Part shown: piece by piece, positions 31,307 through 47,726 of the stretch
Numbering within the stretch: the first letter of the stretch is position 1
Layout: each line of letters begins with the position of its first letter
DNA from: an uncultured Spirochaetota bacterium
GTDB lineage: Bacteria; Spirochaetota; Spirochaetia; SZUA-6; Fen-1364
Assembly (NCBI GenBank): GCA_963734545.1
Contig: CAVTHO010000004.1
Coordinates: forward strand, 576,001-640,000
Length of the DNA: 64,000 nucleotides
Reading direction: 5' to 3'
Notes under the pieces: model-generated
The model's input: only the letters and a program-made list of their open reading frames with translations
Database searches by the model: none
Told to the model about the DNA's origin: nothing
Made by a program: the position numbers and the translations under genes

Positions 31307-32227
31307 TCAGCCCGCCAGATCCCTTGCGCACTCCGCGGCGATGCGGCAGGCCAGGCGCACGTTATTGTGGAACAGCCTGATATTGGTCTCGAGAGACGCG
31401 CCGCCGGAGAGCTCGACGATCCGGGAAAGAAGGAACGGCGTCACTTCCTTGCCGCTGACCGCGCGGCGTTCCAGGTCTTTCAGGGCCTGACCGATCCACC
31501 CGTCCATCGTTGACCGGGGGATCTCCCACTCGACGGGAACCGGGTTCGCCACGAGGATGCCCTGGGGGAATCCCAATGAGCGCTGCACCTGCAGCATGCG
31601 CGCGATCTCCCCGGGGGAATCGGCCCTGAGGAACAGACCGAGGCCGCTGGACCGGGAATAGAATGCGGGAAACTCGGAGGTGCCGTATCCCACGACCGGC
31701 ACGCCAAGGGTTTCCAGCATCTCGAGTGTCTTCGGAAGATCGAGGATCGCCTTGGCGCCCGCCGAGACCACGCACACGGAGGTGGCGGCAAGCTCGCCCA
31801 GGTCCGCGGAGACGTCATACGTGTCAGAGGCTCCCCGATGCACACCGCCGATGCCGCCCGTGGCGAACACGTCGATACCGGCCTGCCGCGCGGCAATCAT
31901 GGTGGCGCACACGGTGGTGGCCGCGGTTTTCCGGGCAGCAAGGGCCCAGGAGAGATCGCGCCGGGACGCCTTCAGCACTCCCTTTTCCGTGCCCAGCCTC
32001 TCCAGCTCCTGCCGGTCAAGACCGACCGCGATCTTCCCGTCCAGGAGGGCGATGGTCGCGGGCACGGCGCCGCATTCCCGCGCAAGGGCCTCCGCGGCGA
32101 GCGCCGTTTCCACGTTGCGTGGATAGGGCATGCCATGGCTGATGATCGTGGATTCGAAAGCAACAACCGGCCGGCGCGCGCGCAGCGCATCCGCCACTTC
32201 GACGGACAGTCTCACCAGGTCAATCAC
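31307..32227 (-). CDS. psuG: Pseudouridine-5'-phosphate glycosidase
   Basis: ESTIISHGMPYP, KASRRD, ATGGIGGVHRG, DVSADL, GAKAILD, GKEVTPFLL. Confidence 0.95.
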   Translation of the reverse strand: MIDLVRLSVEVADALRARRPVVAFESTIISHGMPYPRNVETALAAEALARECGAVPATIALLDGKIAVGLDRQELERLGTEKGVLKASRRDLSWALAARKTAATTVCATMIAARQAGIDVFATGGIGGVHRGASDTYDVSADLGELAATSVCVVSAGAKAILDLPKTLEMLETLGVPVVGYGTSEFPAFYSRSSGLGLFLRADSPGEIARMLQVQRSLGFPQGILVANPVPVEWEIPRSTMDGWIGQALKDLERRAVSGKEVTPFLLSRIVELSGGASLETNIRLFHNNVRLACRIAAECARDLAG

Positions 32228-33049
32228 AGCGCGCCTCGCTGGAGCTTTTCCTCGACGAAAGCCATTGCCCCGTGCACGGCGGCGGTTATTTCCTCCCCTG
32301 CATGGAGCCGTGAAAGAAGCGCGGCAAGCAGCAGGTCTCCTGCGCCGGTGGTATCCTGCGCCTGCACGACAACGGACGGCGGGAAATCCTCCCGGCCCTC
32401 CTTGCGGTACAATTGTGCCCCCTCGCTGCCGCGTGTCACGAGAATATTCAGAATGCGCTTCTCCGCCATGAACGCGGGAATATCAGTCGTGAGAGCCCGC
32501 AGCTCCTCACCGGTCGGGGTGAGGAGATACAGGCCACGGAGGGCCCCGGCGATGCCGAACGGCCTTTTCCACGGACACGGGCTCGAAAACCACGCGCGTA
32601 CGGTCCGCGTAGCGGCGCGTCAGGTCCGCGAGGAGCCGGGGCGACAGGTTCGCATCCAGCACGAGGAAGTCCTTCTGCCCGGGATCACCGAGCCGGCTGA
32701 TCACGAAGTCAGCGGAGAGGGACTCTTCCACGATGCGAAAGTCCGAGGCACCTACTTTCAGGCTCCCTTTTTCCATGAGCGCGAGGTACAGCGGGGGTCC
32801 GGCGTCCGCGCCCCGCACCACCTGGAGGGCCACATCACCGTCGGCTTCCAGCGCCTGCCGTGCCCACTGCGAGATAGGGTCGACCCCCAGCGCGGTGATG
32901 AACCGCCTGGGCGCGTCGAGATTGCTGAAAATGCGATACCCCACCCCGCCGAGCCCGAGCTTGATGTCCGATGGGTTCGAAGTGCCTTCGAGAAACTTTT
33001 CCCGGACAGCGATCATGTCGATTGCAACGGCGCCCACTACAAAGATCAT
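32224..33049 (-). CDS. psuK: PfkB-family kinase, probable pseudouridine kinase, frameshift near 32550
   Basis: VVGAVAID, GGVG, LDANL, FEPVS, VTRGSEG, DTTGAGD; translationally coupled to psuG. Confidence 0.75.
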
Positions 33050-33118
33050 GCACATGACGATGCGCGATCCTCTTCCGACTGTCAATTCTCCTGTCGTTGT
33101 GGTATCAATGATACTGCG

Positions 33119-34750
33119 ATGGCACACGGCACCGCGGGCAGAGAGCAGGACATCGTTCTCAAGGGCGGTCTCGTCGTCGACGGCACGGGCGGCGCGCCTT
33201 TTTCCGGCACTATTCTGATCCGGGCGGGCAAAATCCATCACATATCACCCCGGCCCATCCGCTCCAAAGGCATTGCGATCGACTGCGCGGGCAAGGTCAT
33301 CGCGCCCGGATTCATCGATGCGCATTCCCACCTGGACTGGCACATACCCATCAAGGGGCACGATGAGCTGAAGTACCCTTTCCTGGCGCAGGGCATAACG
33401 ACCGTGGTGGCGGGAAATTGCGGGGCATCCGCCGCCGGCTTCAGGGAGAACAGCGCCTGGAAGGGGCAGGCCGAGAGCAATCTCCTGAGGAACGGACTTC
33501 TGAAAATCGAATGGGATTCGGTGAGCGACTATCTGTCGCGCATCGGCTCATCCGGCGCCAGCCATAACATCGCGCTGCTCGTGGGGCATGGCTCGACGCG
33601 CGCCTCCATTCGCGGCAATGTCCCCTCTCCCCTTCATCCCTACGAGGCCAAGGAGCTTCTGTGGCTGCTGGAAAACGCCATGGATCAGGGGGCCTGCGGA
33701 GTCTCGCTCGGCCTTCAGTACGAACCAGGCCTTTTTGCCAGTCCCGAGGAAATCAGGGAAGTCGCCCTGTTGGTCAAGAAAAAGGGCAAGATCCTCTCGG
33801 TTCACCTGCGCGCCCTTTCCGCCCTTGCCCCCGGATACCCTCTGCGGGCCTTCGGAGAGCCGCATAACGTGGCTGCGCTCCGCGAGATGCTGGACCTTGC
33901 GAGGCGCACCGGCGTGCGGCTCCAGATCTCGCATCTCATCTTCGTCGGCTCACGGACATGGCGGACAGCGGAGACCGTTCTGGAGCTCATCGACAAGGCC
34001 ATCGCGGACGGTGTCGACGTGCGCTTTGACGCCTACCCCTTTCACTGCGGAGCGTCGGTGATCAGCGTCATGCTGTCCCCGTGGTTCATTGCGAAAGGCC
34101 AGGCCGCCTACGAGGATGCCGGGGCGCTTCGACAGCAGAAGCGGGAAATACAGCGCGTGGAGCGTCTGCTCGGCTTCGGGCCGTCGGATATCCAGGTGAC
34201 TGATACGCTGGACAGCGACCTTGCCGACTACAACGGGAAGTTCCTTCACGAGATCGCGCGCGTGCGCAGGATGAACCCCGTCGAGGCTTTGATCGATATC
34301 TCGCGGCGAAGCCACGGGCGCGCGCGGGTGCTCTGTCATCGCTACAGCAATGACAAGATCGTCGAAGCCCTGATGAAGCACCCTGCCGCGCTCTTCATGA
34401 CGGACGCCTGGGTGGAGCGGACCGGGCTGCAGAACCCCTCCGCGTACGGGGCTTTCCCGCGGCTGCTGCAGATGACGCGCGAGCGCCGGTTGCTGCCGCT
34501 GGAGGAAGTGATCCGCAAGATGACCGGCGCAACGGCAGAGCGTTTCGGGCTTGCCGGCCGGGGTGTGCTGAGGGAAGGATTCCCCGCGGACGTCACGGTC
34601 TTCGACTATGAAAACGTACGGGACAACACGACAACCAGTGAGACCAGCATGGCGCCTTCGGGCATCGAATACGTGATCGTGAACGGACAAAAGATAATCG
34701 GGGCGGGGCGGAAGGAACACCCCCTGAACGCCGGCGTCGCTCTTCCCTGA
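33119..34750 (+). CDS. N-acyl-D-amino-acid deacylase-family amidohydrolase
   Basis: VVDGTG, APGFIDAHSH, QGITTVVAGNCG, QISH, YGAFPR, IRKMTG, ADVTVFD. Confidence 0.88.
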   Translation: MAHGTAGREQDIVLKGGLVVDGTGGAPFSGTILIRAGKIHHISPRPIRSKGIAIDCAGKVIAPGFIDAHSHLDWHIPIKGHDELKYPFLAQGITTVVAGNCGASAAGFRENSAWKGQAESNLLRNGLLKIEWDSVSDYLSRIGSSGASHNIALLVGHGSTRASIRGNVPSPLHPYEAKELLWLLENAMDQGACGVSLGLQYEPGLFASPEEIREVALLVKKKGKILSVHLRALSALAPGYPLRAFGEPHNVAALREMLDLARRTGVRLQISHLIFVGSRTWRTAETVLELIDKAIADGVDVRFDAYPFHCGASVISVMLSPWFIAKGQAAYEDAGALRQQKREIQRVERLLGFGPSDIQVTDTLDSDLADYNGKFLHEIARVRRMNPVEALIDISRRSHGRARVLCHRYSNDKIVEALMKHPAALFMTDAWVERTGLQNPSAYGAFPRLLQMTRERRLLPLEEVIRKMTGATAERFGLAGRGVLREGFPADVTVFDYENVRDNTTTSETSMAPSGIEYVIVNGQKIIGAGRKEHPLNAGVALP

Positions 34751-34800
34751 GCGCCGCGGTATCCCCGCGGATTTATCGCGCCGCGGTATTTCCGCGGATT
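34751..34800 (-). repeat. Two tandem reverse-orientation copies of the CCGCGG-N5-CCGCGG palindromic repeat
   Basis: GCGCCGCGGTATCCCCGCGGATT (34751-34773) and GCGCCGCGGTATTTCCGCGGATT (34778-34800) fill the gap between convergent stop codons. Confidence 0.85.
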
Positions 34801-36301
34801 ATCGTAGTATCTTCTTCAGCTCCTCTTCCCACCGCCCGTACGCCTCGAGATAGGCGGGTCTCCGCGATTGATCCGGCTCGGCGATCTGCACGGCCTTCAG
34901 GCCGACAAAAGCCTCTTTCATGGTGGTGTACACACCCGCGCCGAGGCCGGCGCCGCGCGCGGCGCCCTGCGCGCCGTCCGTGCTGAAGAGCTCCACCCGG
35001 GCTCCCGTGACGCTGGCAAAGGCGTCGCGAAACAGCGGACTGAGGAACATGTTGGCGTGACCGGCGCGCACGGTGCGTGCTTCGACCCCCATGCCTCTCA
35101 TGATCCCGAGGCCGTACTGAAGCGCGAATACGATCCCTTCCTGCGCAGCCCGGAGAAGGTGAGGAATACCGTGCCTGTTGAAGTCGAGCCCGAGGATCGA
35201 CGCGCCCGGGTTCCTGTTCTCCAGCGTCCTTTCCGCGCCGTTTCCGTAGGGGAGGATGATCAGGCCGTCGGACCCGATCGGCGCCTCCGAGGCGACCCGG
35301 TTCAGCTCGTCATAGGGGACCGCTCCCGAGTCCCCCACGAGCAGGCGTCGGATCCAGCTGTAAAGGATGCCTGTCCCATTGACGCACATGAGGACGCCGT
35401 AGCGGGGGTTCTCCTTCGAATGCGTGACGTGGACAAATGTGTTCACCCGTGACGCCTCGTCATGGGCCGGCGAGGAGGTGATGCCATAGACCACGCCGGA
35501 AGTTCCCGCGGTGGTGGCAGCCTCCCCCGGATCCACCACGCTGAGGGAAAACGCGTTGTTCGGCTGATCGCCCGCCCTGTAGCAGACCGGCGTTCCCTTC
35601 TTCAGGCCGAGCGCGGCGGCCGCTTCAGCCGTCAGACCGCCCTGCACGGAGAATGTCGGCGAGGGCTCGGGAACCATTTCCCGAGGAATCCCGTACCAAT
35701 CCAGCACGAAATCCGCCAGACCCTGCCGTGAGAAATCCCAGAGGATGCCCTCCGAGAGCCCCGAAGGAGACGTGCGGATTTCCCCCGTCATGCGCAGGGC
35801 CACCCAGTCACCGGGGAGCATGAACTTTGCGACACGTGCGAAAATGTCCGGCTCGTTCTCTTTTACCCATGCGAGCTTGGAGGCGGTGAAATTGCCGGGG
35901 GAGTTCAGCAGGCGTGAGAGGCAGGTCTGCTCACCAATGCCGCGAAACGCATTTTCGCCGATCTGCACCGCCCTGCTGTCGCACCAGATGATGGAAGGCC
36001 GCAGCACCTTCCCGGCCTTGTCCACGAGCACCAGGCCGTGCATCTGGTAGGTGATTCCGATCCCGAGGACCGCGTCGAATGCCTTCCCCGTGGAAGCCTT
36101 GAGCTCCGCGGCTGCCGCGAGGATGTTCTCCCACCAGATCGAAGGGTCCTGCTCGGCCCAGCCCGGCCGCTTTGCCTCTATGGCAAGCTCCTTCTTCGGG
36201 GAGGTTGCCGCGCCTGCCACGACCCCTGTGCCCGCGTCCAGCAGAGTCGCCTTGATCGCGGAGCTCCCCACGTCGATGCCCAAGAGGTATCCGTCACGCA
36301 T
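34799..36301 (-). CDS. xylB: FGGY-family carbohydrate kinase, xylulokinase-like
   Basis: LGIDVGSS, QMHGLV, IIWCDSR, AGDQ, GTSG, PYGNGAER. Confidence 0.85.
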   Translation of the reverse strand: MRDGYLLGIDVGSSAIKATLLDAGTGVVAGAATSPKKELAIEAKRPGWAEQDPSIWWENILAAAAELKASTGKAFDAVLGIGITYQMHGLVLVDKAGKVLRPSIIWCDSRAVQIGENAFRGIGEQTCLSRLLNSPGNFTASKLAWVKENEPDIFARVAKFMLPGDWVALRMTGEIRTSPSGLSEGILWDFSRQGLADFVLDWYGIPREMVPEPSPTFSVQGGLTAEAAAALGLKKGTPVCYRAGDQPNNAFSLSVVDPGEAATTAGTSGVVYGITSSPAHDEASRVNTFVHVTHSKENPRYGVLMCVNGTGILYSWIRRLLVGDSGAVPYDELNRVASEAPIGSDGLIILPYGNGAERTLENRNPGASILGLDFNRHGIPHLLRAAQEGIVFALQYGLGIMRGMGVEARTVRAGHANMFLSPLFRDAFASVTGARVELFSTDGAQGAARGAGLGAGVYTTMKEAFVGLKAVQIAEPDQSRRPAYLEAYGRWEEELKKILR

Positions 36302-37012: not shown

Positions 37013-37306
37013 ATGTCTGACCTCAATGCGAAGGTCGAGCTTGCGCACAAGATCGCGGAGCGCAAGCTGGCGTTCATACGGCACGCAATCAGCTACCTGG
37101 TCGTCATCATCGGCCTGGCCATCGTCAACAACCTCGGCTATGCGAGCGACGGGCCGCGGTACCAGTGGTGGCTCTGGGTGGCGTTCGGATGGGGAATCGG
37201 CGTCGTCTCTCATTTCCTCTCCGCATTCCTCTACCAGTCCGGCAACCTTGTGGAAAAGATGGCGAAACGCGAGCTGGAGAAGATGAATGAGTCGAACAAG
37301 ACTTAG
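37013..37306 (+). CDS. 2TM-domain protein
   Basis: AAGGAGG then ATG at 37013; HAISYLVV...WWLWVAFGWGIGVVSHF. Confidence 0.8.
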   Translation: MSDLNAKVELAHKIAERKLAFIRHAISYLVVIIGLAIVNNLGYASDGPRYQWWLWVAFGWGIGVVSHFLSAFLYQSGNLVEKMAKRELEKMNESNKT

Positions 37307-38192
37307 CCCCATCGACATCCTCGGGATCACTTTGGGAGTCATCGTCATCCTCATCGTCATCGGCAGCGTGGTCGTGATCGCGCAGGGCCGGATGTTCGAC
37401 TTCAGATGGTCGATTCCCGAGCTGCGCGGCTCCTGGGCGCGCCCGCAGGCCTCCATCGGCGGCCCGGTACGGGAAGAAAAGGACGAGAAAATAGCGGGAG
37501 ACTTCGCGGAGATCGAGGTGCGCACCATCGCCGGCTCCATAGCGATCAGCGGGACCTCCGCCGGCGGGGTGAACGTGCACTCCGTGAAGACCGCGATGTT
37601 CCGCAATGCAGCCGACAATGTTCATGTCGAAATCCGGAAACAGGGGAACCGCCTCGTCGTGGAGGAGAAGCACGAGCCGCGTTTCTTCTTTCCCTCCGGC
37701 ACGATCTCGTTCCAGGTCGTGATCCCCCGGGGCGTGAAGCTCATCGATGCGCACTCCGTCAGCGGAAGCATCACGGTGCATGATGTCCTGTCGGGCATCG
37801 ATCAGAGCCTGAGCACGATTTCAGGATCCGTCTCCACGAGCCGCGCGCACAACCTGAGCGCATCCAGCACGAGCGGTCAGATCCAATTCGCCTCGGACGG
37901 CGGCTCTCTCAGCGCGCGCACCGTTTCCGGCTCGATCAATGGTGACATAGACTCCCTTGAAAAAGGGGGTTCCGCACGCCTCGCCACGGTTTCCGGCTCG
38001 GTCACCCTGAACGCGTTCCCCGGCCTGGACGCTAAAATCTCCCTTCATTCGGTGAGCGGGCGCGTTTCCTGTGATTTCCCCGTCACGATCTCCGAGCAGA
38101 AGAACAACCGTCTGGAGGGAACGATCGGCGCGGGGGCGGCCAGCCTGGACGCGGGCACGATCAGCGGAAGCATCAGCATCAACAAGAAGTAG
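37287..38192 (+). CDS. DUF4097-family beta-strand repeat membrane-anchored protein
   Basis: N-terminal TM helix, repeated (T/S)(V/I)SGS(I/V) motifs. Confidence 0.8.
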   Translation: MSRTRLSPIDILGITLGVIVILIVIGSVVVIAQGRMFDFRWSIPELRGSWARPQASIGGPVREEKDEKIAGDFAEIEVRTIAGSIAISGTSAGGVNVHSVKTAMFRNAADNVHVEIRKQGNRLVVEEKHEPRFFFPSGTISFQVVIPRGVKLIDAHSVSGSITVHDVLSGIDQSLSTISGSVSTSRAHNLSASSTSGQIQFASDGGSLSARTVSGSINGDIDSLEKGGSARLATVSGSVTLNAFPGLDAKISLHSVSGRVSCDFPVTISEQKNNRLEGTIGAGAASLDAGTISGSISINKK

Positions 38193-38277: not shown

Positions 38278-41200
38278 ATGGCAACCGACAAGAGAAAGCA
38301 TACACGTGTCAGTCACCGCGACACGGTGGAGCTCACATCAGGGTCGTACACGTTCTCCGGAACCTCCGTCAACGTCAGTACGAGCGGAATGCAGGTGGTT
38401 GTCCGGCTGCCGGAGTCTCATGATTCGATCCGCAGCATAGCCTTCCAGATCCCCGGCTCCGGCGAACGCGTCGAGCTGCCCTGTCGCCTGATTCGCAATT
38501 CGGAACACGATGTCGAGGGTGACCAGGTCCTGGGCCTCGAATTTCTCTACGAAGCGGATGCCCAGCTCCTGCTCATCGAGAAGTTCATCCAGGATACCCA
38601 GCGCAGCAGGGACGATGCACGCGAGCTTCCCCGGACCTCCTGCCACCTGGACGATGTCACGGTCGAAAACCAGGCGGTCGAGGTTCTCTCCATTGACAAC
38701 CTCTCCACCGAGGGAATGCTTCTCAGCTATCGCGGAAACCTGAGACAGGGCGACCCGCTCACCGTGAGCGTGGGCATTCCGGGGGACGAGCGCCGCCTGC
38801 GCCTGACGGGCGTCGTGGTGTACGTGATGGAGAACGTGCTTCGGGGATCTTTGACGGCGGGCTTGCGGCTGTCGGTCATGAAAGAGACCGAGGAACGCAG
38901 ACTGAGGAATCTCATCGTCGCCTGCTCCTCGGGGAGCGCGATACGCGGCCTGCACCAGCACATTCATTCCAGGACGCTGGAACCCGAGTCCCGAATAACA
39001 GATCCGGTCCTGATCAGCGACATCCTGCAGGCTCTGCAAGTGGAATGCGTGCGCCTGAGCACGCTGGTAGAAGGTTCCTTCACCATCCTCGAGCATGAGG
39101 TTGAGGGCGTTGACCAGGACCTGCGGCGGTTCACGATCAAGCCGGACAGAGCGCTCGTCTCGCGCGCCCTCACACCGGGTGTAGCGGTGTACTTCAGCTT
39201 CTACAGGAACAAGGCCAGCTACTACTTCAAGGCGGAAGCCGCCTCCGCCAGCGACCAGCTCTTGAGCTTCCCTTTTCCCGTCGTCGTGTTCCGCACGGAC
39301 AAGAGATCCTACCAGAGAAAGCCGCTGCAGAACGTCTCTCGCGTGAGGCTGGGGGTCCTCGGAGAGAAGTCGGAAAGGCATACCTTCGAGGGGACATTGA
39401 TCGACATCAGCCGCAGAGGGTTTCTCTGCGAGCTTCATCTCACCGCCGAATCCCAGGCATTATTTCAGAAGGGAAAAGGCATTCATTACACCGTGGACGA
39501 CAGGCTGGGTCTGGGAAGCGAAGGCCAGATCCGACACCTGAAGGCTCTGCCTTCACCCGAAGGCGTTATGCTCCAGGTCGGTGTGGAGGCGGGAATCGGC
39601 AGAAACGCGGTGCGTTCCCGCCGCATCCCGGATGCAGAATGGGAAGAAGGGAACTCGAGCAGGAACTGGCCGCCCGGTCCTGAAAGGCACATCGAGTCCC
39701 ACGTCGTGAGGTTCCCTGACAGGGACGGCCATGAAATCTGCGCCTTCCTCAACGCCACCGAGCTGCGGGTCAAAGCTCCCGTCGTCATCATCCCCTCGGC
39801 ATACGGGAAAAAGAAGGAAGCATTTTCTCCCCTCGTGGCGACCCTGCTCGCGAGCTTCTGGAGCGAGGGAAAGAACATCGTCACGCTGCGCTTCGACGGC
39901 ACCAACCGCCCGGGGGAAAGCTACCAGGAGGAAAGCAATCCACGGCGCGGGTACGAAATGCTCTCCTACAGGATCAGCCAGGGGCTCGGCGATCTCCAGG
40001 CGGCCCTGGACTTCGTACGCGACAACCCGTACTTCATCGCGGAAAAGGTGATCATGGTCTCCTTCAGCATGTCCGCCATTGACGTGCGGCGCCTGCTGAG
40101 CAGGGACGAGGAAAGTGGTGTCGACTACTGGATCAGCGTCATGGGGGTTCCCGCTGCGCAGACCACGCTCCGCAACATCCTGGGCGGCATCGACATCATC
40201 AGCAATTACCGCCTGGGGATTCCGAACGGCATCATCGGGCTGCTGGGGCATCTCATCGACATGGACATCATGGCGGCAGATGTGGTGGACAAGAAATACG
40301 CCTTCCTCACCGACGCGCGCCTGGACATGTCGCGCATCGCCATTCCCGTTCTGTGGATCTACGGCGTGTACGACAAGTGGGTGGAGATGGACGAGGTCAA
40401 GGACCTGATGTCGGTCAAGGCGCGCGGGACACGCGAGACGCTCGAGATCCCCACCGGGCACAACCTGCGCACCAGTGACGACGCCATCCAGACCTTCAAG
40501 CTGATCGCCAGCTCCATCCATGAAAAGCTGTACGGAAAACAGGTCACGGCGCGCGACCCCTGGAAAGAAGAGATGATGCGCGTGCTCACGGAGGAACGCG
40601 AGCGGCTTGAGAACAGGGCGGCTCCCCCGCTCACGGACTACTGGCGCGGGTACCTCCTCGGCAACGAGAGGAACACGGTCGGGTACGATTTCTATCGCCA
40701 TATCCCGGAGTTCAAGTCGTTTTTCAGAACACAGGCAAAATGCCTGTCGCTGGAGGCGGAGGAGATCGTTGCAGACCTGGGCTGCGGCACGGGAATCTTC
40801 CTGGAGGAGCTCCTGGACTTCATTGCGGGCAGGGAAGAGCGAACATCGGTACGAGAGATCACGGCAATCGACCTTATTCCGGACGCTCTGGACAGGACAA
40901 GGGCAAAGTGCGAAAGGATCGTCGCGAGGCACCCCGGCCTGGCTGAAATCGGCTTCCGGTATGTCCAGAAGAACCTGGAGCCCAACAGGCTCATCCCCGT
41001 TGCGCGTTTCATTGAATCAGATGCGCCGTCACTCGAGTCGCTTCGCAACAGGATCGAGGGGCTTTCCAGCAGAGTGCTCGACCGCCTCATCGAGCGAACC
41101 CCACCGGGGCTGCTGGAGGTGATGCGCGGTGCGGTCTCGGAAGAGATGATCTCAGGGCTTGCATCGACCCTGGAGCCGGTGGAGATGCAGACGGTACTGG

Positions 41201-41793
41201 AGTTCAACAGGGCGGCGCGCTTCCTGCAGAATCGGATCGGGCCCCGGGACATCAGGCCGGAGCGCCAGGCCGCGCAGATCGCCCCCGGCAGCCTGCGCAC
41301 GAGCGACCTGTTGTTCGAGACTCTGAGCTTCGACGACTGTGATTCCGTCCTGACCCTGGGGCTGCCTGAGAATCACTTCACAAAGATCGTCGCGAGCCTC
41401 TTCATCTCCTACCTTCGCAATCCAGACTACGCCCTTGCCGAGTGCCATCGCATGCTCACGCCGGGGGGGACCCTCGTGGTGTCCTCCATGAAACCCGACA
41501 GCGATATCTCCACGATATTCACCAACTATATACGAAAGGTGCTGAACCCAAGCTGCCCCGAAGAGGGCGAGAAGGACGACGAAGGCAGCGCCAGCGCTGC
41601 CCGGGCCATGCTCAACGAAGCGGCGAGCCTGTTCGAGCTGGAAGAAGACGGCTTCTTCAAGTTCTACACTGCGGATGAGCTGACAAAGCTGCTTTCCAGC
41701 GCCGGATTCGACGAAATCAGGGTGTTTCCTTCGATGGGAAACCCGGCCCAGGCAAATGTCGCGGTTGCAAGAAAAAGGTTGACAAAATCTTAG
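38278..41793 (+). CDS. Multidomain protein: 3 PilZ domains + LuxD-like acyl-ACP thioesterase + class I SAM methyltransferase
   Basis: PilZ motif pairs RKHTR/NVSTSG, RELPR/NLSTEG and RSYQR/DISRRG. Hydrolase triad candidates SFSMS, YDKWV, GHNL. Methyltransferase motifs DLGCGTG, IDLI and ECHRMLTPGG. Confidence 0.85.
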   Translation: MATDKRKHTRVSHRDTVELTSGSYTFSGTSVNVSTSGMQVVVRLPESHDSIRSIAFQIPGSGERVELPCRLIRNSEHDVEGDQVLGLEFLYEADAQLLLIEKFIQDTQRSRDDARELPRTSCHLDDVTVENQAVEVLSIDNLSTEGMLLSYRGNLRQGDPLTVSVGIPGDERRLRLTGVVVYVMENVLRGSLTAGLRLSVMKETEERRLRNLIVACSSGSAIRGLHQHIHSRTLEPESRITDPVLISDILQALQVECVRLSTLVEGSFTILEHEVEGVDQDLRRFTIKPDRALVSRALTPGVAVYFSFYRNKASYYFKAEAASASDQLLSFPFPVVVFRTDKRSYQRKPLQNVSRVRLGVLGEKSERHTFEGTLIDISRRGFLCELHLTAESQALFQKGKGIHYTVDDRLGLGSEGQIRHLKALPSPEGVMLQVGVEAGIGRNAVRSRRIPDAEWEEGNSSRNWPPGPERHIESHVVRFPDRDGHEICAFLNATELRVKAPVVIIPSAYGKKKEAFSPLVATLLASFWSEGKNIVTLRFDGTNRPGESYQEESNPRRGYEMLSYRISQGLGDLQAALDFVRDNPYFIAEKVIMVSFSMSAIDVRRLLSRDEESGVDYWISVMGVPAAQTTLRNILGGIDIISNYRLGIPNGIIGLLGHLIDMDIMAADVVDKKYAFLTDARLDMSRIAIPVLWIYGVYDKWVEMDEVKDLMSVKARGTRETLEIPTGHNLRTSDDAIQTFKLIASSIHEKLYGKQVTARDPWKEEMMRVLTEERERLENRAAPPLTDYWRGYLLGNERNTVGYDFYRHIPEFKSFFRTQAKCLSLEAEEIVADLGCGTGIFLEELLDFIAGREERTSVREITAIDLIPDALDRTRAKCERIVARHPGLAEIGFRYVQKNLEPNRLIPVARFIESDAPSLESLRNRIEGLSSRVLDRLIERTPPGLLEVMRGAVSEEMISGLASTLEPVEMQTVLEFNRAARFLQNRIGPRDIRPERQAAQIAPGSLRTSDLLFETLSFDDCDSVLTLGLPENHFTKIVASLFISYLRNPDYALAECHRMLTPGGTLVVSSMKPDSDISTIFTNYIRKVLNPSCPEEGEKDDEGSASAARAMLNEAASLFELEEDGFFKFYTADELTKLLSSAGFDEIRVFPSMGNPAQANVAVARKRLTKS

Positions 41794-41806
41794 ATCCTTC
41801 TACAAT
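41779..41806 (+). promoter_or_regulatory. Internal sigma70-like promoter for the ligase-ACP genes
   Basis: TTGACA-16-TACAAT overlapping the end of the PilZ gene; RBS GAGGA before ATG 41845. Confidence 0.6.
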
Positions 41807-41844: not shown

Positions 41845-43239
41845 ATGATTGGCATAGGGCAAGCCATCAGCGCCTCTCTCCGCGATTGGGGTGATTGGCC
41901 CGCTTTCCTTCAAGTAAGCAAGGCCCGCGGGATCTCTTCCACCTCTTCCGCCGCGTTCTCAGCGAGAATCATCGAGATTGCCCGACAACTCTCGGCCTGG
42001 GGGATTCGGGAAAAGTACCTGGTTCCCCTGTTCCTCGACAACTCAACCGACTTCATCACCATATTCCTGGCCCTGCTCCACATCGGCGCCATCCCTGTCC
42101 TGGTGAAGCGGGAGTACAGGGCCCTGGAGCTGGATGAGATCTTCAGCAATGCCCGTCCCCAGGCCGTGATCACCGAACAGGAGCACATGCGGCTCCTGAC
42201 GCCCTACCTCCGCGACACAATTGTCATTATGCGGTCGGAAAGCCGATTCTCCCTGACGCAATCCGCCGAGGGCCTGCAGTGCCGTGAGGACATCCCGGAT
42301 GACATTGCCTCCATCAACTACACGTATCGAGGATACGGCTACACCCTGGGCGCCATGGTCTCCCACGCTCAGTACCTGCACGGCGCACGGGTGCTGCAGG
42401 ACGGCCTCCAGGCATCAGCGGGAGAAAAGATGCTCATCATCCTGCCGATGGCCCATATCTTCACGATGGTGGGCTGCATTCTCGTCCCTCTGCTCTTCCG
42501 AATGACCAGCGTGATCGTGGACTCCCTGCACCCGCGGCTCCTCTTCCAGTACATCCGCGACTTCCGCATCGAGCACGTGACGTCCGTGCCGGAGATCTAT
42601 GAGCTGCTCTACCGGCTGCGCGACCCTGCCGCGGACCTGTCCTCTCTCAAGGTCTTTGTGTCGGGCGGAAGCCTCCTGACCCCGGACAGCTATTCGACCC
42701 TGACCCGGGCCTTTTCCGTCGACCTGCTTCACGGGTACGGACTGACGGAGTTCACGCCGGTCAGCCGCAACGTGCGCCACGCGGCCAGGCCGGGAACCGT
42801 CGGGCCGCTCTGCGACCAGGTAGAGTGCCGGATAGACCCGGCAGGTCCGGACGGGGCCGGAGAGATCCTGATCAGGACGCCGCACGAGATAGGCAGGTAC
42901 TACCACAGGCCGCGCGAGTCCGACGAAGCGCGGCGCGATGGCTGGTTTCGCACAGGGGATATGGGCCGCATGGACGACGGCCACTTGGTGTTCGTGAAAG
43001 AGCTGAAGAATACGAGAAAAATCAACGGCAACCTCGTGGACATGGAAGAGGTCAGCCGCGCGTTCCGGCTGGACAAGGACGTGGCGGAGGTGCAGGTGGG
43101 GTGGGAAAACAACTCCCTTTTTGCAAACCTTGCATTGAGCCGGCATATCGACTTTGAAGAAAAGACGAAACGGCTGAAGACCTCGCTGCGGGACGTTCTT
43201 GCGGAGTACAAGATACCCCGGCGCTTGAGCGTGTTGTAG
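41845..43239 (+). CDS. AMP-binding (ANL superfamily) acyl-CoA/acyl-ACP ligase-like protein, divergent
   Basis: LPMAHIF, SGGS, GYGLTE and FRTGDMG are present. The P-loop is degenerate (YTYRGYGYTLG) and the C-terminus is short. Confidence 0.8.
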   Translation: MIGIGQAISASLRDWGDWPAFLQVSKARGISSTSSAAFSARIIEIARQLSAWGIREKYLVPLFLDNSTDFITIFLALLHIGAIPVLVKREYRALELDEIFSNARPQAVITEQEHMRLLTPYLRDTIVIMRSESRFSLTQSAEGLQCREDIPDDIASINYTYRGYGYTLGAMVSHAQYLHGARVLQDGLQASAGEKMLIILPMAHIFTMVGCILVPLLFRMTSVIVDSLHPRLLFQYIRDFRIEHVTSVPEIYELLYRLRDPAADLSSLKVFVSGGSLLTPDSYSTLTRAFSVDLLHGYGLTEFTPVSRNVRHAARPGTVGPLCDQVECRIDPAGPDGAGEILIRTPHEIGRYYHRPRESDEARRDGWFRTGDMGRMDDGHLVFVKELKNTRKINGNLVDMEEVSRAFRLDKDVAEVQVGWENNSLFANLALSRHIDFEEKTKRLKTSLRDVLAEYKIPRRLSVL

Positions 43240-43252
43240 GAGGCACGGAAAC

Positions 43253-43528
43253 ATGGGCAATGTACAGGAATACCAGAGCGCGACGCAATTCAAGAATGCA
43301 ATCAAGCAGATCGTGTCACGGATCTCCCGGATCGATGTGGCGGAGCTGGATGACGGGCTCTTGATACGCGAAGAGCTGGGAATCGACAGCCTGATGGCAA
43401 TGGAGATCATTGCCACCTGCGAAAAGCTGCTGGGTTTTAGGATTGATGAAACACTATTCGCCGACGTGAAGACAGTAGAAGATTTCTTCGAGCTTCTCAT
43501 GACCCTCGTAGGGAGGGTGAATGCGTAA
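43253..43528 (+). CDS. Acyl carrier protein
   Basis: Acidic 91-aa protein with the ELGIDSLMAMEI phosphopantetheine site and KTVED. Confidence 0.9.
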   Translation: MGNVQEYQSATQFKNAIKQIVSRISRIDVAELDDGLLIREELGIDSLMAMEIIATCEKLLGFRIDETLFADVKTVEDFFELLMTLVGRVNA

Positions 43529-43705: not shown

Positions 43706-45037
43706 TCAGGCCAGTTGTTTGTATATTTCCTTGAAATAGGCCGACCTGTCCCTGAAAGCCCTCTCGTTGAATATCTGGCGATATGCCCAGATAAAGCCGT
43801 CTTCGAGCTGCTCCTTGGTCATTCCCTTTGGCCGGAAGGTGACGTCGAGGAACGTACAGCGCTCCCAGAACGGCTCGGGGTAGAGGAACCTGTCCTCTTC
43901 CTTCAATCGTTCATACATTCGTGACCCCGGCAGCGGGGTGGCCACCGTCAGCTGGCCGGTCAGCTGGTTTCGGTTCATGAAGTCGACAACGCGGCTGAAC
44001 ACCCCCTGGTTGTCGTGGTCGAGGCCAAAAATAAACGAGCTGAACACCACGATGCCGTGCTCCTGGATGCGGCGCACATGCGCCTCGTAATTCGGAAGCT
44101 GGCGCAGCTTCCAATCATTGCGGTTCATCCCTGATAGATTCTGGGGATCGAGACTTTCGAAACCGATGAGCAGGAAAAGACATCCGGAACGGTAGATCTG
44201 CTGGAGAAGCTCTTCGTCCGCGCCAATGGCGATATCCGTTTGGCCGATCCAACGGACCTTGAGCTCCTCAAGCGCCACCAGAAGCTCCTTGGCGAATCGT
44301 CGATCGGTGAACAGGTTGTCATCAGCGAAGAGGATGAGGCGGTTCGGGACACTGCGTCTTATCGCAGCAATTTCGTTGCGAACCTGAAGTATGGTCTTTT
44401 TGCGCGGCTTCTTTCCGTAGATCCCGGTTACCAGGCAGAACTCGCAATCGTGTGGGCAGCCCCTGCTCGCCTGGACCGGCACAAAGTTGTAGAAGTGTTC
44501 CGGGTCGAGCAGTGTCTTGCTTCCACTCAGAAGATCGTAGCGAGGCAATGGCGATGTGGTGAGATCTATGTAATGACCCGCAGTGTTGCGGTAGATTTGT
44601 TGCGGCTCCCCATTCTGAAAGTCCTGGAGGAAGCGGGGCCAGAGCTCCTCGGCCTCGCCGACGACGACCGTGTCAGCACGGGAAGCGGCCTCTTGTGGCA
44701 TCATGGTGGCGTGACTTCCCCCGATGACAACATAGACGCCCCGGGCCCGGAACTCAGCAGCGATTTGATAGGCACGGACGATAGTCTGAGTCATTGCAGT
44801 GATCCCGACCAGGTCGTAGTTCGCCGTGTAGTCTATCGGAGCAAAGTCTTCGTGGACGATCTCGACGTCGATGGCTGGCGGAGTCAAGCCGGCTATGGTG
44901 AGCAGACTCAAAGACGGCGAGTACCAAGCCTTCAAGAACTTGTGGCACTCACGCAGTGCAAGCGTTATCTTCTCGGTCTTTGCCCAGACATCACGTCTTG
45001 GATTTATCAGGCATATTCGACTCAATGTGCGGCGCAC
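43706..45037 (-). CDS. B12-binding radical SAM protein
   Basis: IGGSHAT cobalamin-domain motif, RGCPHDCEFC, FADDN, IGFES, FIFGLD, TPLPGS. Confidence 0.9.
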   Translation of the reverse strand: MRRTLSRICLINPRRDVWAKTEKITLALRECHKFLKAWYSPSLSLLTIAGLTPPAIDVEIVHEDFAPIDYTANYDLVGITAMTQTIVRAYQIAAEFRARGVYVVIGGSHATMMPQEAASRADTVVVGEAEELWPRFLQDFQNGEPQQIYRNTAGHYIDLTTSPLPRYDLLSGSKTLLDPEHFYNFVPVQASRGCPHDCEFCLVTGIYGKKPRKKTILQVRNEIAAIRRSVPNRLILFADDNLFTDRRFAKELLVALEELKVRWIGQTDIAIGADEELLQQIYRSGCLFLLIGFESLDPQNLSGMNRNDWKLRQLPNYEAHVRRIQEHGIVVFSSFIFGLDHDNQGVFSRVVDFMNRNQLTGQLTVATPLPGSRMYERLKEEDRFLYPEPFWERCTFLDVTFRPKGMTKEQLEDGFIWAYRQIFNERAFRDRSAYFKEIYKQLA

Positions 45038-45211
45038 GGGCGCGAGTATATGACGCAGCGATCTCCCGGCGCAAGGGCAATCTCGAGACGCAGCGCGGGA
45101 GGATCCTGACCAGGGGCTTCTGCAAGCGTGCGAAAGGGTATATGATGCTGGAAATGCCCGGCGCGCTCAGTATTTCTGGAAGGTGTGAGAAAATACCATA
45201 GAAAGGCGAGA

Positions 45212-47726
45212 ATGAGCTCAGAGAATCCGGCTCTCTCAAGCGACCTATCCTCTCTCCACGCCGGATTCGAGGCGGAAACCAGGGAAAAAGCGATTCGAGA
45301 CCTTCGTCTCGTCGTAGTGATCGCGGGTGTTTTCTACATGCTCTTCCTCATTCTCGACTATTTCGCGTATCCCGGCCTATTTCTCACTTTTCTGCTGATA
45401 CGGTGCATAGTCGTTTTCGGCAGTGGGCTGATTTTTCTTCTGATGTGGACACCAATGGGCACAGCGCACCCCCGCCTTTTCGCGATGCTTGAATACCTGT
45501 TGTGCGGCTCGGGCATCATGGTGATGGTTCATCTTTCAGGCGGTTACACCAGCTCGTACTATGCCGGCGTCATCCTGGTCCTGCTGTTTTTCATTTCCAT
45601 CCTACCCCTGGACGACAAGAGAACCCTGTTCATATGCGTGATTCTCTACGCAATGTATCTCGTGCCGATCCTCGCGCTGCAGAGGATCGTCCGATTCGAT
45701 ATATTCCTGAACAACAACTTCTTTCTCTTCACCACGATCGCTCTTGTAGTCCTCAGCTCGCAACTTGCCACCCAGATGCGGTTTCGGGAGTTCAGCGGCA
45801 GATTCAATCTTGCCCGCGCAAATGAGGAGCTGAAGAAGCTCGACGTCCTGAAGTCCCAGTTCTTCGCGAACGTGAGCCACGAGGTCCGCACTCCCCTCAC
45901 CTCCATCCTGTCGCCCATCCAGAGCCTGTACCAGGGAGACCTTGGGCCCCTGGTTCCCGAGCATCAAATGCTCATCGGACAGGTCTACCGCAACGCGCTG
46001 AAGCTGCTCGATATGATCAACCAGATGCTCGATTTCTCGAAATTCGAAGCACGCAAGATGCAGCTCCGTCTCAAGCACGTCGACATAGACGAGCTGGCAC
46101 GGGACATCGTGACGACCTTCCAGGACGTCACGGAGCGGAAGGGATTGAAGCTGCGCTACGTGGTTGAGGGGGAATTGCCGCCCGCATACCTGGACGCGGA
46201 AAAGCTCGAGCGAATCCTTACCAATCTGATTCGAAACGCCATCAAGTTCACAGAGAGCGGGTCCATTACCGTCCGGGTCGGCGCCACGCCGGTGAACCGG
46301 TGGCTCGAAGTCAGGGACACCGGCATCGGCATTCCGATGCAGCATCTTGCGAATATCTTCAACAGGTTCCAGCAGGTGGACTCCTCCTCCACGCGAAAAT
46401 ACGAAGGAACGGGGCTCGGTCTCACGATCGTCAAGGAGTCGGTGGAGCTGATGCAGGGGAGCGATCAATGTCCAGAGCGAGGAAAGGCGGGGCACGACGT
46501 TTCGGATCGAGCTGCCGGCAAACCTGGATCAGCTTGCCCCGGACGCGTTCGTCGACAGGAGGAAGGACGCGCAGCGCCGGCAGCCCGCTGATGAGTTCGA
46601 CGGCGACGAAAAAAGAAGGAAAGCGCGGCGTGAATCGGACCTGGCGCGGATCACCGTGGATGATCTTGCCCTTATCGAGAAAGAGACCATCGACCGCGAA
46701 GCAAAGGACGGCCGCGTCCCTGCGCACGATGGGAACGGCAACGCCGACCACATCCTGCTCGTGGAGGACAACGTCGACCTCAGGGCCTACATCAGCAAGA
46801 TGCTCTCCCGGTTCGGGCATGAAGTGGCCACGGCCATCGACGGACTGGACGGCTGGGAGCATGCACAGACGGACCTCCCCGATCTCGTGGTGTCGGACAT
46901 CATGATGCCGCGCATGGACGGCTACGAGCTGGTGGGCCGGATCAAGTCCACTGACACGACCCGGCATATCCCGGTGATCCTGATCACGGCGAAGCCGGAG
47001 ATCGAATCCAAGCTGGAAGGGCTGCAGAAGGGCGCGGACGACTATCTGCCCAAGCCCATCAACATCCGCGAGCTGGACGCCCGCATCCGGAACCTTCTCG
47101 TGACCCGGAACCTCCAGCAGGCGCTGGCGCGTGAAGCCGAGCTGGGCGCGCGGATGGAAGAGCTCAGCATGAGCTTCTCCCAATCACTGGAGATCCGGGA
47201 CTTCAACACTGCCGGCCATTCGCGTGACGTCCTGTACCTGGGCACGATCATCGCGGAAGGAATCGGCATCCCGGTGGACCGCATGCTGAAGGATTCACTT
47301 CTCCTGCACGATATCGGCAAGCTGGGCATACCCGACCGGATTCTCCTCAAGGAGTCGCCGCTGAACGAGGAGGAGTGGAAGATCATGAGAACCCACCCCG
47401 AGCTGGGGGCGAGCCTGCTCGGGCACTTCGAGTCCTATCGGGAGATAAGCAGCATCATCCTCGCGCACCAGGAGCACCTGAACGGCACCGGCTATCCACG
47501 GGGATTGAAGGGCGACGAGATCCCCCTGTTCGCCCGGATCATCGCCATCGCGGATGCCTACCACGCAATGACCAGCAACCGCCCGTACCGCAAGGCGCTC
47601 CCGGCGAGCAGGGCAGTGCTCGAGCTCACGCGGAACCGCGGCACGCAGTTCGATGCCGCGCTCGTCGATGCCTTCATAAAGGGTCTCCTGCAGCGCAGGA
47701 TCATTACGATGGAAGACATCATGTGA
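45212..47726 (+). CDS. Membrane sensor histidine kinase fused to REC and HD-GYP phosphodiesterase domains, frameshift in G-run near 46458
   Basis: 5-6 TM helices; H-box SHEVRTPL; boxes NAIKFT, DTGIG, GTGLGL. The shifted frame reads MQGAINVQSE...TTFRIELP and runs without a stop into REC (VEDN, SDIMMP, KP) and HD-GYP (HDIGK, GTGYP, IADAYHAM). Confidence 0.85.

Follow-up and report, generated by a model that had tools for sequence, protein, structure and literature searches.

Within the window, the whole 64,000-nt stretch of DNA analysed here, positions 38278..41793 of the plus strand hold an intact reading frame of 1171 aa that is open throughout. Its product is predicted to be a large uncharacterised enzyme that joins three PilZ domains to a LuxD-like acyl hydrolase and a methyltransferase, in the order PilZ–PilZ–N-domain–PilZ–hydrolase–methyltransferase. 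Full-length proteins among the relatives listed have 1130–1260 aa, and our literature search found no paper describing a triple-PilZ/hydrolase/methyltransferase enzyme. The gene is the first of a conserved module, whose product is probably a lipid-like molecule made under c-di-GMP control. An earlier note on this DNA had placed the first arginine of each PilZ motif and the hydrolase triad by nucleotide position, and translation returns the same codons (R6 at nt 38293, R115 at 38620 and R343 at 39304; Ser597 at nt 40066, Asp699 at 40372 and His728 at 40459).

The N-terminal 470 residues are assigned, from profiles and motifs, to two PilZ domains, an N-domain and a third PilZ domain, with all three predicted c-di-GMP sites intact. 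PilZ-1 (aa 4–104; 38287..38589, plus strand) carries R6xxxR10 and N32xS34xxG37, PilZ-2 (aa ~113–230; 38614..38967, plus strand) carries R115xxxR119 and N141xS143xxG146, and PilZ-3 (aa 341–470; 39298..39687, plus strand) carries R343xxxR347 and D376xS378xxG381. In the profile search proposed by the earlier note, against the PilZ and Acyl_transf_2 families, PilZ-1, PilZ-2 and the hydrolase score above the gathering cut-offs and PilZ-3 below. For Pfam PilZ (PF07238, cut-off 22.5 bits) the scores are 37.9 bits for PilZ-1, 30.4 bits for PilZ-2 (aa ~133–213) and 19.6 bits for PilZ-3 (E 0.0012, aa ~342–428). PilZ-3 is assigned by hhalign and its motifs as well: comparison of the family sub-alignments gives 96% probability for both PilZ-1/PilZ-2 and PilZ-1/PilZ-3. 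The three complete RxxxR and (D/N)xSxxG pairs reported earlier are borne out across the family, where each of the 15 motif positions is kept in 65–66 of 66 aligned N-terminal regions (24–86% identity to the window protein, D/N interchange counted as kept), with a single Q at PilZ-2 position 141.

The N-domain (aa 231–340; 38968..39297, plus strand) is conserved and is homologous to the N-terminal domain of a sister clade of ~820-aa proteins, which consist of N-domain, a single PilZ and the hydrolase–methyltransferase core. The PilZ-3 motifs are invariant in this clade. The earlier note had called aa 231–340 YcgR-N-like, a label that the sequence does not carry: a Pfam search of this segment returned nothing at E<=1, a PilZN-type family is absent from the precomputed Pfam assignments of all 120 relatives listed and matches 0 of 15 sister-clade members, and hhalign assigns a probability of 1–2% to its alignment with the three PilZ domains. 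The N-domain precedes the last PilZ in every case, single-PilZ sister clade included, and therefore occupies the position held by PilZN in YcgR.

The LuxD-like alpha/beta hydrolase (aa 471–780; 39688..40617, plus strand) has the predicted triad Ser597/Asp699/His728, proposed in the earlier note and invariant in 65/65 sequences. Pfam Acyl_transf_2 (PF02273, gathering cut-off 20.3 bits) scores 25.4 bits on the isolated domain and 21.6 bits on the whole protein, a marginal and partial match covering profile positions 76–220 of 294. At E<=0.01 it is matched by 49 of 65 relatives (best 6.6e-10), more than any other Pfam family found on their hydrolase domains (FSH1 16, Hydrolase_4 14, DLH 3), and by 0 of 15 sister-clade members. 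With the family profile as query, the LuxD structure 1THT is the only PDB match under E 0.01 (E 1.1e-4, 24.5 bits; next 0.28). The HMMER alignment spans nucleophile, lid and Asp and pairs Ser597 with chain residue 114 and Asp699 with 211; residues 114, 211 and 241 are those we take to be catalytic in 1THT. The parallels to LuxD drawn in the earlier note hold for the nucleophile and Asp motifs and for the lid stretch, whereas the His motif lies beyond this sequence alignment, as does His728. Among known families and solved structures alike, LuxD appears closest by sequence. The designation LuxD-family enzyme stands in this sense but not as orthology: the protein stays far below the cut-offs of the LuxD equivalog models NCBIfam NF052253 (20 bits vs cut-off 420) and PRK13604 (20.3 bits vs 529), and PF02273 is matched only in part.

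The C-terminal domain (aa 781–1171; 40618..41790, plus strand) is a methyltransferase, as claimed earlier, of the class I SAM type, with an intact motif I (D833xGCGTG839) that is invariant among relatives. Methyltransf_11, 23, 25, 12 and 31 each score above their own cut-offs. Because these families and the PDB matches are generic methyltransferases only, the sequence leaves O-, C- and N-methylation indistinguishable. An insert of ~150 aa within the domain (40900..41352, plus strand) gives no Pfam match at E<=1 and is absent from the sister clade, where it appears as an alignment gap.

The genes that follow form a conserved operon of ligase, acyl carrier protein (ACP), B12 radical-SAM enzyme and kinase–REC–HD-GYP protein, which the earlier note had missed. 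An acyl-adenylate (ANL/AMP-binding) ligase of 464 aa (41845..43239, plus strand; PF00501, 164.8 bits) lies downstream on the same strand in 60/62 loci; its best NCBIfam match, under cut-off, is a long-chain-fatty-acid–CoA ligase. Every ligase homologue stops a few residues past a conserved YKIP and falls short of the final 10–30 positions in the ANL profiles compared. This stretch is, we take it, the site of the catalytic Lys for the adenylation step, and normal ligase chemistry is therefore not assured. Beginning 13 nt past the ligase gene, a previously unannotated ORF encodes an ACP of 91 aa (43253..43528, plus strand; PF00550, 43.9 bits, cut-off 20.8) whose GIDS motif contains the Ser for phosphopantetheine. 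All 41 sequences compared keep D45 and S46, and the ACP gene is found on the same strand in 59/60 loci.

A carboxylesterase-type alpha/beta hydrolase, a class I methyltransferase and an ACP together recall the BioH/BioC/ACP set established in biotin synthesis. By analogy, the methyltransferase would protect the free carboxyl of a carrier-bound dicarboxylate during processing, for instance by the radical-SAM enzyme, and the hydrolase would later cut the methyl ester rather than a thioester. A weak match to BioC (TIGR02072, 29.6 bits) and JGI automatic names that include 'pimeloyl-ACP methyl ester carboxylesterase' point the same way. The BioC score, however, is far under the equivalog cut-off of 184.95 bits and no better than those of UbiE-type models, the JGI names are generic COG labels, and the hydrolase is nearest to LuxD, a thioester-directed acyltransferase and not a member of an esterase family. 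We consider such a protection cycle quite unlikely.

A B12-binding radical-SAM enzyme of 443 aa (43706..45037, minus strand; PF02310 and PF04055) comes next. Its gene is present in 43/57 loci, on the plus strand in all of those and inverted in the window, and the window enzyme belongs to the second of two lineages. It is followed by a histidine kinase (45185..46591, plus strand; HisKA, HATPase_c) with about six transmembrane helices (aa ~40–195, hydropathy scan) and without a large periplasmic domain, found on the same strand in 53/54 loci, and by a REC–HD-GYP c-di-GMP phosphodiesterase (46656..47726, plus strand; Response_reg 96.5 bits, HD_5 122.8 bits). A NosR-type model on the latter protein stays below cut-off (159.6 bits vs 400). 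In most relatives, kinase and REC–HD-GYP are one fused protein of ~840 aa; in the window, a frame change near 46458–46462 interrupts the gene and splits it in two. Other gene clusters in the loci were common to no more than 9 of them. The module lies outside a lux operon, as the earlier note had it: its neighbours are ligase, ACP, radical-SAM enzyme and kinase, and a search limited to the LuxE family gave matches only on another contig (C3), none near the window.

The genome has 13 GGDEF matches, so that c-di-GMP synthesis is predicted to be possible. The PilZ array might serve localisation, scaffolding or c-di-GMP buffering beside a constitutively active enzyme, and one report (10.1101/814665) describes protein–protein contacts mediated by a PilZ C-terminal helix. 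We regard a non-gating array as improbable, considering that all three motifs are kept almost without exception, that the hydrolase-adjacent PilZ is retained in the sister clade, that an HD-GYP phosphodiesterase is linked on the same strand in 50/52 loci, and that the family members P0162 and P0214 add a REC domain at the same N-terminal end, which fits a regulatory input there.

Spirochaetota and Desulfobacterota carry the module, as do a few further lineages. Of 80 sister-clade loci, 55 match a homologous membrane kinase, and an MMPL/RND lipid-type exporter adjoins the enzyme gene in 26 loci; where loci were mapped, it lies mostly between the enzyme gene and the kinase gene. Ligase, ACP and radical-SAM enzyme are essentially absent (1, 0 and 1 matches in the 80 loci). 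The ancestral hydrolase–methyltransferase core therefore needs none of the three and may use another acyl donor.

Since the kinase is the partner shared by both clades, methyltransferase and hydrolase could instead act on protein, most likely the membrane kinase, as writer and eraser (methylesterase) of a reversible methylation, a c-di-GMP-tuned adaptation of the CheR/CheB kind. Precedent comes from the PilZ protein MapZ, which controls the chemotaxis methyltransferase CheR1 according to 10.1101/2020.02.11.943704. Profile searches of the protein gave no match to the CheR or CheB families, however, the nearest relative of the hydrolase acts on acyl-ACP, and the clade-specific partners are lipid-related on both sides (ligase and ACP here, the MMPL exporter there). 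Protein methylation is, in our judgement, very improbable.

A reading close to that of the earlier note uses a donor from housekeeping metabolism: a LuxD-type thioesterase would take an ordinary acyl-ACP such as myristoyl-ACP from general synthesis, with ligase and ACP left to recycling or another branch, much as RpfB is tied to RpfF. Its appeal lies in LuxD as the nearest known relative and in the sister clade, which keeps the core without ligase and ACP; in Xanthomonas, moreover, the gene for RpfF, a signal synthase with thioesterase activity, is linked to one for a fatty-acid CoA ligase (PMC8042644). But an ACP beside the ligase in nearly every locus argues for a private substrate pool, and chain-length specificity is not readable from sequence. 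Supply from the general pool is in our view unlikely. The operon context both strengthens and changes the acyl-ACP reading: an acyl group on the cluster's own ACP is a likelier substrate than myristoyl-ACP drawn from the general pathway of fatty-acid synthesis. The remainder of the earlier proposal, namely that c-di-GMP would act allosterically and that a fatty acid would pass on to the methyltransferase, is plausible.

The results above establish which domains are present, how well motifs and triad are conserved, and the synteny; from these we infer a substrate, a product, an order of hydrolase and methyltransferase action, a direction of c-di-GMP control and a kinase cue. In the reading that we prefer, and to which we give an even chance of being right, a c-di-GMP-gated enzyme would offload and methylate a carrier-bound acyl group within a ligase/ACP/kinase–HD-GYP module. 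(i) The adenylate-forming ligase would load a carboxylic acid, probably of fatty type, onto the dedicated ACP; (ii) where encoded, the B12 radical-SAM enzyme would modify the tethered chain; (iii) the LuxD-like domain would remove the acyl group from the carrier; and (iv) the fused methyltransferase would methylate it, most simply converting the freed carboxyl to a methyl ester. Binding of c-di-GMP to the PilZ array would gate the catalytic half, and the membrane kinase–REC–HD-GYP protein would lower local c-di-GMP on a membrane or lipid cue, so that enzyme and kinase protein would form one circuit.

An extension, which we put forward tentatively and think unlikely, is that this circuit is a self-contained signalling system: the methylated fatty-acid ester made by the PilZ-gated synthase would be the signal, the kinase would sense the same molecule, and HD-GYP would degrade c-di-GMP with feedback onto the synthase. 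The ester would be radical-SAM-modified where that enzyme is present, and the signal could be diffusible or membrane-bound. If true, environmental Spirochaetota and Desulfobacterota would have a system akin to quorum sensing whose autoinducer synthase doubles as a c-di-GMP receptor.

Among the outputs known to be under PilZ control, polysaccharide synthases, flagellar brakes, pili and transcription predominate. The enzyme family would add carrier-protein-dependent synthesis of lipids or small molecules to the direct targets of c-di-GMP, and LuxD-type acyltransferases appear to have relatives far outside bioluminescence. Three intact PilZ sites in series would suit the study of cooperative second-messenger sensing, and tight linkage to a membrane kinase–HD-GYP phosphodiesterase would make a compact circuit, testable by heterologous expression. 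To our knowledge, c-di-GMP biology has hardly been characterised by experiment in the carrier lineages, Spirochaetota and Desulfobacterota known mostly through metagenome-assembled genomes.

Compared with known systems, the catalytic half resembles LuxD, the myristoyl-ACP acyltransferase/thioesterase of bacterial bioluminescence. In both, an alpha/beta hydrolase has a nucleophile elbow that departs from GxSxG (S-x-S-x-S in the window protein), but the relation is distant by the scores given above. The window domain, moreover, shares its polypeptide with a sensor array and a methyltransferase, lies outside a lux operon and has a dedicated ACP and ligase beside it. The closest receptor systems are the PilZ-gated BcsA (cellulose synthase), Alg44, YcgR and MrkH. 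An N-domain–PilZ unit beside an enzyme repeats the YcgR-like layout, whereas the output is a hydrolase–methyltransferase and not a glycosyltransferase, motor brake or DNA binder, and three PilZ domains are present with all motifs intact. Tandem PilZ proteins typically retain one canonical domain only, according to a survey.

The Rpf/DSF system of Xanthomonas (RpfF, RpfB, RpfC, RpfG) likewise encodes together an enzyme with acyl-ACP thioesterase action, a ligase for fatty acids, a sensor kinase in the membrane and a REC–HD-GYP c-di-GMP phosphodiesterase (PMC8042644). The window module differs: it has no crotonase-type synthase; in most loci of its type, a single polypeptide combines kinase and HD-GYP regulator; the synthase candidate itself carries the predicted c-di-GMP receptors; and ACP, radical-SAM enzyme and methyltransferase are added. 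For PhcB/PhcS quorum sensing of Ralstonia, PMC8578825 and PMC10576176 describe a SAM methyltransferase producing a fatty-acid methyl ester, methyl 3-hydroxymyristate, that is sensed by a histidine kinase; here the likeness to the window module lies in the proposed scheme and not in sequence similarity to PhcB.

An uninterrupted ORF of 1171 aa occupies positions 38278–41793 of the forward strand in the window, whose G+C content is ~62%, and was divided into domains by Pfam and NCBIfam scans. Two PilZ domains (PilZ-1, aa 4–104, 37.9 bits; PilZ-2, aa ~133–213, 30.4 bits) are followed by a 110-residue domain without a family match (N-domain, aa 231–340), a third PilZ domain (PilZ-3, aa ~342–428) that, at 19.6 bits (E 0.0012), stays under the cut-off of 22.5 bits, an alpha/beta hydrolase (aa 471–780) and a class I SAM methyltransferase (aa ~825–1145) that is split by an insert of ~150 residues without a Pfam match. 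The only Pfam family to match the hydrolase above its cut-off is Acyl_transf_2 (25.4 versus 20.3 bits), over profile positions 76–220 of 294.

Translation places R6, R115, R343, Ser597, Asp699 and His728 exactly where the earlier note had read them, and the three pairs of c-di-GMP motifs it proposed are borne out by conservation: each of the 15 defining residues is kept in 65–66 of 66 aligned N-terminal regions (24–86% identity; D/N interchange counted as kept). In the tandem PilZ proteins described in the main text of a PilZ survey (10.1101/2020.02.11.943704), one domain typically lacks the motifs, whereas the enzyme here retains all three sets. Ser597, Asp699 and His728 are invariant in all 65 hydrolase domains, as is motif I of the methyltransferase among the aligned relatives; the methyltransferase itself matches generic families only.

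The segment ahead of PilZ-3 had been called a YcgR-N-like spacer. The family assignment finds no support in the sequence, aa 231–340 matching no Pfam family; what stands is a conserved domain that, together with the following PilZ domain, has the order of YcgR-like receptors, a likeness of layout and not of sequence. Comparison by hhalign gives 1–2% probability between the N-domain and the protein's own PilZ domains, and 96% between PilZ-1 and either PilZ-2 or PilZ-3. The N-domain has a homologue at the N-terminus of the ~820-aa proteins that form a sister clade and consist of N-domain, one PilZ, hydrolase and a methyltransferase without insert; in their PilZ domain ERRDRxR and DxSxxG are invariant, and 5 of 15 members reach the Pfam PilZ model. 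The unit of N-domain and PilZ adjoining the enzyme therefore appears to be ancestral. Some other family members have two PilZ domains, and some begin with a REC receiver domain, which precedes the PilZ array in the relatives P0162, P0214 and P0058. Such variants fit an N-terminal regulatory input, to be weighed against the alternative that the PilZ domains are non-allosteric, and the domain order of the REC-bearing members suggests that in them this core can be controlled directly by phosphorylation as well.

We compared the hydrolase with Vibrio LuxD, to which the earlier note had likened it. Searched against the PDB, the single sequence finds 1THT, named 'thioesterase' and taken by us to be Vibrio LuxD, at E 0.01, with a dienelactone hydrolase chain scoring about equally on the N-terminal half; a profile of 65 family sequences finds 1THT at E 1.1e-4 (24.5 bits) as the only match below E 0.01, the runner-up lying at E 0.28. 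In the HMMER alignments to 1THT, whose catalytic triad is presumably formed by residues 114, 211 and 241, the proposed parallels hold for nucleophile, lid and Asp motif, while the His falls outside the aligned region. When each of the 65 domains was searched against Pfam, 49 matched Acyl_transf_2 (best E 6.6e-10), 16 FSH1, 14 Hydrolase_4, 3 DLH and 1 Abhydrolase_1. Alpha/beta hydrolases vary most in the lid, and homology extending through it argues for a specific kinship with the LuxD lineage. A LuxD orthologue is ruled out, as the curated LuxD models, which have cut-offs of 420 and 529 bits, give the protein a score of 20. Nor was a lux context found: a search for the LuxE family gave matches on another contig only. 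A profile search for stand-alone hydrolase relatives returned 14 matches, all fragments of the same fused family, and found no bridge to free LuxD-like proteins, for which the word-index limit of the search may be the reason. The ~560-aa hydrolase–methyltransferase forms P0178 and P0225 resembled a free core but are not claimed as one: P0178, at least, clusters with an 820-aa protein at 90% identity and is therefore probably a truncated gene call.

The earlier note had set the gene outside a lux operon, and none was seen; it did not include the genes that lie downstream. An AMP-binding ligase gene (41845–43239, +; PF00501, 164.8 bits), whose best curated model is a long-chain-fatty-acid–CoA ligase at a score below the cut-off, is followed after 13 bases by an unlisted ORF for a 91-aa acyl carrier protein (ACP; 43253–43528, +; PP-binding, 43.9 bits; GIDS motif). 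Further downstream lie a B12-binding radical-SAM gene (43706–45037, −), a histidine kinase with ~six transmembrane helices and without a sizeable periplasmic domain (45185–46591, +) and a REC-HD-GYP regulator (46656–47726, +). We scanned one genome per GTDB species, confirmed 187 loci and kept 78. Where a locus extends far enough downstream to be counted, the PilZ gene is followed by the ligase (60 of 62 loci), the ACP (59 of 60), a radical-SAM gene (43 of 57), the kinase (53 of 54) and REC-HD-GYP (50 of 52, with 300 aa or more aligned). All counted module genes share one strand, and no further ORF cluster is common to more than 9 loci. The upstream genes for a DUF4097/LiaG-like protein (37287–38192, +), an FGGY sugar kinase (34799–36301, −) and a protein of 970 aa that carries an amidohydrolase domain at its C-terminus (31838–34750, +) have tblastn matches in 1, 3 and 2 of 78 loci, respectively, and therefore lie outside the module.

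The window's own copy departs from this pattern. Kinase and REC-HD-GYP form one ~840-aa protein in most loci. Within 46440–46480 of the window the reading frame shifts near 46458–46462, beside a short G run, and the fused protein of locus L006 aligns with aa 6–418 in one frame and aa 417–838 in the following one. Either the gene is truly frameshifted, and thereby split or disabled, or the assembly is in error at this point. The radical-SAM gene has the opposite orientation to its counterparts in all 43 loci with one in this slot and belongs to a minority lineage, being 56–65% identical to those of L007, L026 and L027 but only ~38–44% identical to the main lineage, which is the one in the closest relatives of the window; in L007 the minority form lies upstream and divergent. 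The slot appears to have been refilled or rearranged. In promoter and terminator scans the counts (3 and 12) came close to what shuffling predicts (2.5 and 8.0). The best sigma-70-like match of the region (41779–41806; TTGACA, 16 nt, TACAAT; 11/12) overlaps the final codons of the PilZ gene, ahead of the ligase gene, and may be an internal promoter; overall, such sites are as numerous as the shuffle predicts.

A word-indexed protein search found 183 relatives, of which the 120 best are mostly 1130–1260 aa long, with full-length coverage at 40–87% identity; those that bear a name are called only 'PilZ domain-containing protein' or have generic methyltransferase or hydrolase labels. The loci come mostly from Spirochaetota MAGs, with a minority from Desulfobacula, Desulfotignum or Thermodesulfobacteriota and single loci labelled Aminicenantes or Eubacteriales; all homologues are metagenome-assembled or metagenomic sequence. 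Within the window's phylum the hydrolase profile matches 8 of 401 sampled genomes and 2 of 153 genera, a patchy distribution, and the window's genome holds one copy of the enzyme.

The sister clade served as a control. Its neighbourhood was characterized by ORF clustering and by Pfam on one representative locus (L139). From 80 metagenome loci, ligase, ACP and radical-SAM genes are all but missing (1, 0 and 1 matches), and none of 15 scanned members matched PF02273 at E≤0.01. A homologous membrane kinase is present in 55 of the 80 loci (alignments up to 469 aa), whereas REC matches end at or below 256 aa, so that HD-GYP is missing there. An MMPL/RND transporter adjoins the enzyme gene in 26 loci, mostly between the enzyme and kinase genes where mapped; a kinase-REC-HATPase protein occurs in 51 loci, a REC-GAF-kinase in 16, and, upstream, a Trans_reg_C + AAA_16 regulator in 28 and an AAA-deaminase protein in 22. 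The neighbourhood (e.g. L139:3619–17887) also holds a 223-aa protein without a Pfam match. Since the kinase is homologous in both clades, the common partnership is that of PilZ-hydrolase-methyltransferase protein and polytopic kinase, which is also the pairing on which a rival reading, a CheR/CheB-like protein methylation cycle acting on the kinase, would build. Each clade has its own predicted lipid-related additions, carrier protein and ligase in the window's and a lipid-type exporter in the sister's. In the window's clade, the HD-GYP output goes along with an insert in the methyltransferase and with two additional PilZ domains.

From the observed domains, conserved residues and synteny we propose, at even odds, a c-di-GMP-gated bifunctional enzyme that would take an acyl group from the carrier protein through Ser597 and methylate it; its substrate, its product, the order of the two activities, the sign of regulation and the ligand of the kinase are what we infer. 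Ligase and ACP would supply the substrate, the radical-SAM enzyme, where present, would modify it, the LuxD-like domain would remove the acyl group before methylation, and the linked kinase-REC-HD-GYP would control how much c-di-GMP is present locally. Such an enzyme would most simply yield a fatty-acid methyl ester, perhaps with a branched chain. Against acyl offload and methylation stand the weak LuxD match, the sister clade, which works without ligase and ACP and without a PF02273 match in its scanned members, and the generic methyltransferase. The interrupted kinase gene of the window and the ligases themselves count against it as well. In the window's ligase and the ANL genes of L002–L079 the C-terminus is short: all 70 clustered ORFs, of median length 465 aa, stop a few residues past a conserved YKIP motif and lack the last 10–30 positions of the ANL family profiles compared, a stretch that we take to contain the catalytic Lys needed for adenylation. 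Rival readings of the enzyme are a BioC/BioH-like protect–deprotect function and the use of housekeeping acyl-ACP.

Full-text searches found no paper on the triple-PilZ/hydrolase/methyltransferase architecture or its cluster, nor one that combines LuxD, acyl carrier protein, methyltransferase and c-di-GMP. Term searches in the main texts of two PilZ surveys (10.1101/814665, 10.1101/2020.02.11.943704) and a Leptospira c-di-GMP survey (PMC12943098) did not find the architecture, which their supplementary tables may include; 'hydrolase' appears nowhere in these main texts, and where 'methyltransferase' is mentioned, which is seldom, CheR is meant. Taken singly, the components have precedents in PilZ-fused enzymes, LuxD-type acyltransferases and signals that are methyl esters of fatty acids; new, within the literature searched, are their combination, an array of three intact PilZ domains and the circuit linked to it. 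The simplest product of acyl offload and methylation would be the same kind of molecule as the Ralstonia signal, which available descriptions give as a fatty-acid methyl ester. The gene set of the module parallels that of the Xanthomonas Rpf/DSF system, in which, according to PMC8042644, a synthase that cleaves acyl-ACP is linked to a ligase for fatty acids, a membrane kinase and an HD-GYP regulator.
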